NCBI GenBank assembly: GCA_037379345.1
Contig: CM074511.1
Span: 54,194,862-54,258,861, forward strand
Length of the DNA: 64,000 nt
Direction of reading: 5' to 3'
Source: Perna viridis
Lineage: Eukaryota
Both the position numbers and the translations under genes were made by a program. Shown here one piece after another: positions 52,301 to 55,300 of this stretch. The number at the start of each line of letters is the position of its first letter. Positions within the stretch are counted from its first letter, which is position 1. The notes beneath the pieces are model-generated. The model was given only the letters and a program-made list of their open reading frames with translations, was not told the DNA's origin and searched no databases.

Positions 52301-55300
52301 TGTTCCGTATGTACCAGTAGGAAAAGTGTTCTATACACTTCTAGAAACAGTCATCTACTTGCTGTCTGAATAAATCTTTATTGCATTTAACAAAAGTTTT
52401 AAAAACTATGAACTATATCATAATACGTTTAAATGAAGTGTGACATGATGCAGTATACTCTTGATATCAATGAACTGAATCGCTCTACGAAACTCTACTT
52501 TGTCTTAAAAGGTAGGCCTGTTAAATATCAACAATCCATTCTTATAGGGTATCTTATTTGTATAGTTTGAAAAAAATTGTCATTGTTCTACAACCAAATA
52601 TTCTTTGCTAATCTCAGATGAGAAATACCAAAATACATAACAATTTACGAAAGAAAAAGTTACTTCATGACAAACGTGATGTTGTTCGAAAACAATAATA
52701 TACAACGCCACCTTCGAATGGTCAATAAGTGTCAGTAATTTTGTTTTATCCATAGAGGATAAAAATATAATAAGTAAATTTTCTTTAAGGCCTTCTAGTA
52801 GACACAAATGAAATAAAACAAATATACAAAATAGATAAAACGAGATTGATATACGGCAAACAAAATATGTATCATCCGGACATATCTTTATTAGCACATG
52901 GGACTCTGATATTTATCGAGGGTGACACGGCATGTGATGCAGAATTTCCCAGAAAATGTAATATACATTTTAACATATATTACAGTATACAAACTATCCG
53001 AAAGACTCAGCAAATTAAAATTATAGAGAAAGTGTAATCAAGGGAACCAAGGTTATAGCGGTAATCAAAAGAATGTAATCCAGGGACAAAGACCAGACAT
53101 GGAAAACAGACATACACAACAAAGAACATAAAGTAACTAATATCATACATGCAAAGTAACAAAAGTAAATGAGCAACTCGGACTCCACCAAAAACTGGGA
53201 GCATGGACCGTGTGCACCGGTAGGGTAAGCGTCCTCTGCTTTTCTAGAAACACCCGCCGAGTTGCTCATAAAAAGTCAGGTTCGGGGTAGACAAACGAGG
53301 GAAGGAAAATTATGACCGGTTGAATAAATCATGGTGCTGATGGATACACCATAACGATCCACGAATTCATGATAACGACCATAAAACTTCTGTAGTGATG
53401 ACTTCAATCTTGTAGCAATTCCGAGCACTGGTGCAATAAAGGTTCGGCCATATGTTAAAGGGGTGTGAAAAAGGTAAGCCATGTGATGCACGTATGTGTT
53501 AAAGGGTGTGACGTCACAATATATGATACGGGTCAAACATTTTAAACTTTGCAACTCAAGACTGCTGTATTAACTACTGATTACTGTAAACATGTATAAA
53601 GGTTTCTAATACAATTACTTATTAACATTTTGTGTAGTTGAAAACATGTTGAAAACAATATTTTAAAACTAAATCCATGGAATTACAACAATTAGTGGCT
53701 GCTTGCAGTTCATTCTAAATTTTGGATGCTAAGAAATGGAAAATTTGTATGTTATAGACATAATATGTCATTACTTGAAGATCTTAAATTGTATGGTTAA
53801 CAAAGTAAAAAGGCAGGTACTCTGTTCACAATATTTTACATTAGTAAAGATTTTTGAAAATGGTACTTTGTTTTAAGTGAAGAAAACATGAAAGAAAACT
53901 CAACAGAATAATCATAAATTAAAATGAATCTTGCAACACTTTTTCAACTGTATAATTATGTCAGAGTCTTTTTTGAAACAAATCCACAAACTTTACTACA
54001 AAAATCTAAATAAGGTGAAACATGTGCCGCAATAGAGTATTTTTTCTCAGTTTTTTTAACAAGGATTAATATGTTTGCTCAGTACTTCCTAATCTCACAA
54101 ACATTTCAGATTAATCCCATGTACTTCATTGACATCACAGTGTAAATACAAAGGAATAGGGGATCAATATTTAACATACCCCGTGTGACCGTATGTTATC
54201 GAAATTCACTGTTAATGAATTTGGTTCCTCAGATACAACGATTTGATAATACTAAACCAATATCAGAACTTTGTAACGTTATTATTTAGTGAAAAGTGTA
54301 TGCGCTAAAAATAAGCTAATCAATTATTGAATTTTAGTAAATGCCATCCCTTGTGAACGGCTTTAGAAGAAAGACAAATAAACTGTGAAATTGAGAGTCT
54401 GATAGATCTTATTAAACTGCATGCAATTTATCGGTTGTCAACAAAGCAATTCACATCTACTCACGAACTATTTTCTTTTGACTATTTCTTTGTTGAAATA
54501 AGTTGTTATTGTATTACTTTTAACGATGTATTTACTTCTTGCATCGATCATAACAATAACAGTGTTACAGTGGTCGTTTCAAGGGTGACAGTTTACATCC
54601 ATCTTTAGTTTATGATTTCGTTCAAGGGTTCATCAAGTATATAGCACGCATTAATTCAAAATCAGTGAACACACAACTAAGGAAAAAAAACAAAATATGA
54701 CAAGAATCTACTGGTATACATTTATTTACATAGATGATGATAGTTTAGGAGGAATAATAGAACTTTCATTGCATCTACTTATGCAAGTTACGCCAAGTAT
54801 ATCCGAGTTATTCGTTTATTATTTTTAAATTGAATAATTAATATCATGTCAAATAAAATGTCCGTAACTATGAAGTTTAGTACGAAATGGTCAATAAGTG
54901 GAAACAAAAATGAATAATTCAAATGTTAAATATAGAAACAAATAATAGTAAAGGAATGACTGTTATATTTTTTCGAGGAAAGAAAAACTATGACCCGTTG
55001 AATAAATCAGTTTTCATGGTGCAGATGGATACACCATAATGATCCACGAGTTCATGGTGACGACCATAAAACTTCTGTAGTGATGACTTCAATCTTGTAG
55101 CAACATAACCCTGTTCCAGAAGCCTATTTGTTAGAGTTCTAGCGCGATACAAAAAGTCTGTGTAGTTTCTGCAAGCTCTGATATAACGTATGAGTGATAT
55201 GAACACTCCGTACGCAGGTGCTGAAGGGACGAAAAAATAAACTCAATCACGTGGTGTACCTGCGTATTTCCAGGTGTGTGCCATTGGCATTGAGGTTATT

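Follow-up and report, generated by a model that had tools for sequence, protein, structure and literature searches.

New classes of natural self-cleaving ribozymes are rare. Among the established ones, the HDV-like ribozymes have a short P3 of 3 bp whose 7-nt loop pairs immediately 3' of P1 (P3/P1.1), and the VS and hatchet ribozymes are strand-swapped dimers. Retroviral RNAs also have dimerisation signals driven by palindromes.

Penelope-like elements carry hammerhead ribozymes in their pseudo-LTRs. The available sections of two papers describe these hammerheads as having short palindromic loops or arms and as cleaving in the form of dimers (PMC4209133, PMC6765202). HDV-like ribozymes of retrotransposons are also on record, with R2 and L1Tc as cases (PMC6765202). 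The Naiads, which rank among the most abundant retroelements of many invertebrates, are recognised by a GIY-YIG domain before the RT and by CxC and DKA motifs (Craig et al. 2021, PMC8557442). They are approximately 3.4 kb long, form pseudo-LTR tandems and attain tens of thousands of copies. Canonical hammerheads are reported to be lacking from Naiads, in which partial hammerhead cores and SECIS elements have been described (PMC8557442). How Naiads manage without the hammerhead of other Penelope-like elements is left open in the available text of that paper.

Here we describe a motif that is a concrete 100-nt candidate for the Naiad substitute of the hammerhead and whose structure is backed by covariation. 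Sequence comparison provides strong evidence for a pseudoknot and for pairing between copies, and it points to a real and previously undescribed structured RNA of Naiad pseudo-LTRs. What is new is the RNA fold, which fitted none of the families tested; the host is a known element. The motif was not found described in the open-access literature searched, including the available parts of PMC8557442, PMC4209133, PMC6765202, PMC10085705 and bioRxiv 10.64898/2026.07.22.740005. It is visible in the consensus file of PMC8557442, with no description found in the available portion of that paper's text.

The host Naiad and its copies

The window, meaning the whole 64,000-nt stretch of Perna viridis DNA that was analysed, contains approximately 15 whole or partial Naiad copies. 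The copy under study is dead: it is 5'-truncated, its ORF remnant is broken, and CACACG introduces one mismatch into the central helix, P1 (Table 1). A first-pass annotation had placed a multi-stem RNA element just downstream of a Naiad stop codon. This placement is correct, with 40 nt between the stop codon of the RT ORF and the outer 13-bp stem, all on the minus strand. In intact copies the RT frame ends in MKTDLFNGS-stop upstream of the motif. Longer decayed Naiad fragments with RT remnants occupy window positions 16325-18400, 24913-26637, 54974-55260 and 62984-63993, and a partial Naiad tandem lies at 16325-17045. A 450-bp inverted repeat pair of 78% identity (39058-39507 and 39944-40368), unrelated to the Naiad query, is possibly a non-autonomous DNA element.

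The same annotation had named the host a Naiad, and by the diagnostic features in the translated frames of longer copies it is one, at weak Pfam scores. These features are an N-terminal GIY-YIG, CxC, DKA and a C-terminal RT. At locus L227 a GIY-YIG match with a Pfam E of 0.005, which falls short of the curated cut-off, lies upstream of an RVT_1 match (E 0.003), and in the L218/L219 frames CxC and DKA precede the RT core as PDCSC and ADKAQNN. A body of 3.3-4.4 kb and a pseudo-LTR or partial tandem arrangement are further Naiad traits, and both are seen here. An upstream pseudo-LTR is joined at one fixed point in 12 of 30 endonuclease loci, which amount to 10 independent cases because three lie in one array; the whole motif is present in nine of the 12. 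The full 3,409-bp unit is repeated head to tail in one array, with the motif in each unit. The run at G000:C3:46.03-46.08 Mb (L434) comprises at least 16 such copies, each with a nearly intact motif, and is either a rolling-circle product or the outcome of DNA-level amplification. As a consequence of the tandem layout, one transcript would carry two motifs approximately 3.4 kb apart on one strand.

The motif is abundant in the genome. A 34-place core pattern has 10,615 exact matches in 723 Mb and none in the reversed control. Among the matches listed, RT sequence was found in 55 of 111 upstream regions, and in most of those that reach the C-terminus the RT ends 50-84 nt before CGGGTG. Copy 3' ends cluster at +224..+229 from the C of CGGGTG. 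Nine of the 14 families compared below are linked to an RT through some copy and five are not.

Parts of the fold and their covariation

In the element sense the motif reads P0, CGGGTG, 10 nt, RNC AG NNNNN GCT, YACYC, 6 to 10 nt, CACCYG, 5 nt, P4 and P0. Approximately 20 letters are near-invariant from cnidarian to fish. The perfect 13-bp stem and the smaller pieces of the annotation (CGGGTG, AGC-AGAGGAC-GCT, CCCT, CACACG and GCTCC/GGAGT) were all recovered on the minus strand, and CACCTG was verified in the copies near 38046 and 45100. Overlooked were two zero-loop palindromes, TTTCTAGAAA and TACCGGTG.

Table 1. Window coordinates of the motif, its host copy and related copies
Feature	Position	Strand	Remark
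5'-truncated Naiad copy	53027..53418	minus	end of RT ORF remnant and 3' UTR / pseudo-LTR
Stop codon of RT ORF remnant	53310..53312	minus	TAA here, TAG in most copies
P0, 5' arm	53257..53269	minus	13-bp closing stem
P1, 5' strand	53251..53256	minus	CGGGTG, near-invariant
Palindrome 1	53241..53250	minus	10 nt, loop-less; putative inter-copy helix
P3	53228..53240	minus	AGC/GCT, 3 bp; 7-nt loop AG + AGGAC
Pseudoknot, 5' strand	53235-53231	minus	last 5 loop letters of P3
YACYC	53223..53227	minus	TACCC; conserved, unpaired in main model
Palindrome 2	53215..53222	minus	TACCGGTG; 6-8 nt, loop-less; putative inter-copy helix
P1, 3' strand	53209..53214	minus	CACACG here, CACCYG if intact
Pseudoknot, 3' strand	53204..53208	minus	GTCCA; 4 bp in this family, 5 bp in most families
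P4 hairpin	53182..53202	minus	GCTCC/GGAGT; length and sequence vary by family
P0, 3' arm	53169..53181	minus	
Second nearly whole motif copy	38006..38106	minus	same family
Motif copy	45040..45145	minus	5'-truncated inside P1
Decayed motif copy, second family	12662..12728	plus	other palindrome and pseudoknot letters
Second palindrome motif, decayed copy	about 20785-20865	minus	other loci L436-L441

The search pattern fixed conserved letters and not pairings. Run on this genome and on metagenome contigs, it returned 47 matches outside the main family and at least 123 loci, respectively. An alignment (A1) was made from those matches that also have CACNYG, and in it each of 14 families is represented by a single hand-picked, intact-looking copy; extra copies of the same families were omitted, as were L091, L093 and L214, three matches that are probably due to chance. 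Since the families are related, the rows do not count as independent. In the model, 96.1% of 306 cells are paired, with 13 double-changed pairs; none of 500 shuffles reaches any of these measures, and slid registers pair at most 40%. Because related sequences can beat shuffles, the pair types weigh more than the pair count.

Three helices covary across the 14 families: a 5-bp pseudoknot, the 10-nt palindrome and the 6-8-nt palindrome. The pseudoknot joins the P3 loop to the five letters after CACCYG, is 95.7% paired and has double changes in all five pairs. The annotation had proposed a different partner for this loop, the CCCT that follows the hairpin. That pseudoknot fails: 46.7% of its cells are paired across families, 499 of 500 shuffles do at least as well, and no slid register exceeds 71%. 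Double changes occur in 5/5 pairs of palindrome 1 and in the 3/3 central pairs of palindrome 2, which ends 0-1 nt before CACCYG. The innermost pair of palindrome 1 is AU in five families, UA in five, CG in three and UG in one. The annotation had named a lack of conservation across families as a possible refutation; the fold is kept across families and phyla.

The controls were 29 distinct prokaryote sequences in which the same fixed letters occur by chance. Palindrome 1 has at least four pairs in 14/14 families and 5/29 controls, the pseudoknot at least four pairs in 14/14 and 2/29, and palindrome 2 at least three pairs in 12/14 and 1/29. When copies are not picked, the centre pair is Watson-Crick in 40 of the 44 distinct metagenome matches listed, mostly from one series of records, versus 14 of 33 prokaryote matches. 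Among the 15 matches of this genome outside the main family it is Watson-Crick in six and TG in eight. Where families depart from symmetry, the odd pair is in most cases a G-U of the sense strand. The reading of GTRAG as an antisense splice site, weighed by eye, was set aside because the wobble pattern favours the sense strand.

The remaining stems differ in the kind of evidence they provide. P1 is 100% paired and nearly invariant. P0 and P4 retain their shape and differ in sequence between families; an anchored P0 of 7-14 bp was found in 8/14 families, versus at most 8 bp (median 4) in the 29 controls, and the greedy search overlooked the true register in some decayed copies. The AGC/GCT hairpin of the annotation held in two of its three pairs: the outer pair is AU in 13 families and GU in one, the inner CG is invariant, and the middle pair is broken in 3/14. 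As a stem, P3 is plausible from these sequences, and the view that AGC/GCT forms none was dropped because two of three pairs hold. An alternative to P1, the pairing of GGGTG with YACYC, is compatible with 14/14 families (100%) and shows no double change; one published consensus has TACTA at the YACYC position. YACYC could replace CACCYG as the partner of GGGTG, which would make a two-state switch.

The folding z-score is -2.7 for the sense strand and -3.9 for the other. The outer stem accounts for this: taken by themselves, the inner 75 nt do not outperform shuffles, and energy minimisation did not recover the inner fold of the motif. The inner structure is therefore based on covariation and not on energy. 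We regard the motif as almost certainly a real RNA fold.

Probable pairing between copies, possible cleavage and the alternatives

Both palindromes are complementary through the centre, where TA, AT, CG and GC all occur. Two sister families have CCAC-TA-GTGG and CCAC-AT-GTGG, and in the published consensi with the motif, inspected by eye, the centre is Watson-Crick in 12/12 with the same four dinucleotides. A hairpin loop would not need a self-complementary centre, and the palindromes thus point to pairing between copies. The 10-mers of palindrome 1 are marginal as hairpins (0 to -2.6 kcal/mol; +4.1 for the forced 3-bp form of this family) and good as self-duplexes (-9 to -20 kcal/mol in 12/14 families, the two exceptions being copies with one mismatch), which also favours inter-copy pairing. 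Two motif copies probably pair as a strand-swapped RNA dimer.

In such a dimer, palindromes 1 and 2 would each pair with their twin in the second copy. Judged from the topology, P0, P1, the pseudoknot and P4 would stack with linkers of 0-1 nt, and the two palindromes, on opposite strands of P1, would adjoin its far end. The strand of copy B that comprises P3, the pseudoknot strand and YACYC would come up against P1 of copy A, and a trans pseudoknot would result. The conserved core would be assembled from two copies, so that the junction would be complete only in multimeric transcripts. Purely by analogy, CAG, GCU, AC and CGGGUG/CACCYG may constitute a catalytic core, which may process multimeric transcripts to unit length or circles. 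The dimer would then cut RNA and replace the dimer-dependent hammerhead of other Penelope-like elements.

To this reading as a whole, self-cleavage by a dimer that stands in for the hammerhead, we assign a probability of roughly 0.45. Once the dimer is granted, the odds of self-cleavage are slightly better than even. Self-cleavage is the first choice because the motif has the hammerhead's place, near-invariant letters and the logic of a dimer, and because a separate hairpin appears to serve the start of RT. Position and dimer-type palindromes make the annotation's suggestion of a functional substitute for the hammerhead a plausible one. If it is true, an obligately dimeric ribozyme would be a built-in sensor of tandem transcripts.

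The separate hairpin, with GCTGGTGGA and TCCCCGAG, is conserved at the 5' start of the Naiad body (L415:1143-1205; L434; L435) and adjoins the pseudo-LTR end, exactly where copies stop. It is also seen in coral, bivalve, hemichordate and fish consensi of the PMC8557442 file; an Rfam search with it returned no match, and none occurs in the window. For the single Penelope-like element that has been studied in vitro, the RT starts in a stem-loop beyond the pseudo-LTR (PMC11167929, available sections). By this analogy the body-start hairpin is a better candidate for RT initiation or recognition than the knotted motif. The role in RT recognition that the annotation had offered for the motif is weakened, since the second hairpin sits exactly where copies end.

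Genomic 5' ends were mapped in 203 alignments over 1.454 Mb with 109 clean copies. No fixed cut site was found, with at most 2/109 copies ending at any motif position. Over the motif (-30..+45) there are 23 ends, 2.4-fold the upstream rate (p 0.002, for an interval chosen post hoc). Nor do upstream pseudo-LTRs bear the footprint of a fixed cut: their starts are scattered over many places, most of them 5' of the motif. This spread fits an RT that stumbles on folded RNA, or circular or uncut templates. In the element studied in vitro, the hammerhead itself depended on protein, and insertion could do without it (PMC11167929, available sections). A true ribozyme may accordingly leave no footprint, and the analogy is no proof of need. 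Internal deletions lie at window positions 31738-31782 (plus strand) and, outside the window, near 123,039 of block C2 and near 151,382 of block C7. What they take out is either the fold as a whole, with breaks at the base of the outer stem, or the strand that joins the palindromes. These few cases may be RT jumps across folded RNA.

A non-catalytic function is less probable and is the strongest rival. The motif would be a module for dimerisation and protein binding. Its palindromes would hold together either two template RNAs or both pseudo-LTRs of a single transcript, and the Naiad protein would read the invariant letters. This would favour the template jumps that give rise to the partial tandems and inverted copies typical of these elements. 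The covariation evidence fits this module equally, as do the absence of a fixed cut site in copies, the denser 5' truncations over the motif together with clean deletions of the fold or its inner strand, as if the RT had met structure, and the prediction that a Penelope-like protein is a dimer (PMC11167929, available sections). Against it, the unpaired invariant letters persist from cnidarians to fish despite protein divergence, which suits an RNA-only function; the motif also occupies the hammerhead's position while another hairpin marks the RT start, and upstream pseudo-LTRs begin without regard to the motif. Should the motif not be catalytic, a eukaryotic RNA under selection for two helices between copies would still represent a new type of dimerisation module, and such a module would bear on the origin of the pseudo-LTR tandems.

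The palindromes could also be plain hairpins with two- to four-base loops in a monomeric element, such as a ribozyme, a 3'-end processing element or a stability or translation signal. Two helices that join closed loops of separate copies make heavy topological demands, and palindrome 1 has C-G at position 4/7 in 8/14 families and 12/12 published consensi, a pair typical of stable two-base-loop hairpins at that place. We consider a monomer improbable, as the innermost pair covaries through four self-complementary dinucleotides, palindromes of 6 nt such as TTGCAA cannot form hairpins, and AU-rich 10-mers have no stable one.

It is very improbable that the motif belongs to a known class, either hammerhead or HDV-like, in a strongly diverged or permuted form. 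At the gathering score Rfam has no hit in the window. Relaxed thresholds, E up to 10 for the motif here and E up to 5 for the loci of the 14 families, brought up no match either; twister, twister-sister, pistol, hatchet, hairpin, SECIS and the other Rfam models gave no match on the motif, as the annotation expected of a novel one. The 3-bp P3 with its 7-nt loop resembles the P3/P1.1 of HDV-like ribozymes, and P1, the pseudoknot and P4 could stack as they do there. Unlike in HDV-like ribozymes, the pseudoknot has five variable base pairs rather than one or two fixed ones, and the motif lies in the 3' UTR and not at the 5' end. The nested double pseudoknot of HDV is not present in the motif: there is no P2, P3 is not contiguous with the 3' strand of P1 (13-15 nt separate GCT from CACCYG), and the strand after P4 pairs upstream of P1. 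The J4/2 cytidine is likewise absent, as P4 joins P0 without a linker in most families. Retroviral, VS and hatchet dimers share with the motif a self-complementary stretch in which symmetry rather than sequence is conserved; the motif differs in having two palindromes in one junction, a pseudoknot, an invariant core and a Penelope-like host.

Like the minimal, dimer-dependent type I hammerheads, the motif lies in the pseudo-LTR after the ORF and has a three-way junction with one closing stem (Cervera and de la Pena 2014, PMC4209133, available sections). Its two palindromic arms are of the dimer type, and in both RNAs (near) loop-less palindromes let tandem copies pair (PMC4209133, PMC6765202). 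Unlike type I hammerheads, the motif lacks the CUGANGA/GAAA/UH core, has long palindromes (10 and 6-8 nt), and adds a 5-bp pseudoknot, P3, P4 and an outer stem within approximately 100 nt. CUGANGA is absent from the L415 pseudo-LTR and the letters after CUG vary freely in A1. GAAA or a UH cleavage triplet between stems is not conserved in A1, and the sole GAAA of this copy lies in palindrome 1. The likeness to both hammerhead and HDV is one of layout only.

A DNA-level signal (a symmetric protein site, a cruciform or a TIR-like end) or a neutral hitchhiking sequence has an equally slight chance: copies within one family are plain descendants, short palindromes are typical of protein sites and the plus strand folds no worse than the minus, but a covarying, non-nested 5-bp pairing is meaningless in double-stranded DNA, symmetry is kept as the sequence changes, and departures are G-U on the sense strand. 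A terminal inverted repeat or DNA transposon end, which the annotation had named as a possible refutation, was rejected because the stem lies approximately 140 nt inside the sharp 3' end of the element and the 5' ends are variable.

Distribution among published Naiads and other 3' UTR motifs

The motif belongs to the pseudo-LTR of one branch of Naiads and follows the ORF in at least 12 of 54 published Naiad consensi, as found by text search and by eye in unaligned sequences of the available supplement. They comprise two Clytia families, three oysters, Tegillarca, Pinctada, four hemichordate families and the toadfish Chatrabus. Occurrence in prokaryotes was rejected: the 34 matches look like chance and none combines a palindrome with the pseudoknot. 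Viral contigs gave four loose matches and none for the fuller pattern.

In the published file a hammerhead core is flagged in 1/12 consensi with the motif versus 16/42 others, a difference that is not significant (Fisher p 0.078) and not between independent families, in a text search that can miss line breaks. Consensi from Acropora, Nippostrongylus and Stegodyphus have CTGAYGA and GAAAC pieces with long inserts in the 3' UTR (PMC8557442 supplement). Some of these coral, nematode and arachnid consensi carry no flag in the available material of those authors. The pieces are possibly enlarged or permuted hammerheads. In two Chlamys consensi a hairpin is closed by GACGGGTG / CACCCGTC, which are the letters of P1, and the rest of the motif is absent (PMC8557442, available file).

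An unrelated second motif consists of GAGGTT, a 10-nt loop-less palindrome, AAACCNGGTT and then a CCYGTWCCAAGKCRG hairpin. It is a candidate for another dimer-type RNA. In five published Naiads from mussels and clams (bivalves) of the available file, the second motif takes the corresponding place in the 3' UTR, and it has 116 matches in this genome versus three in controls.
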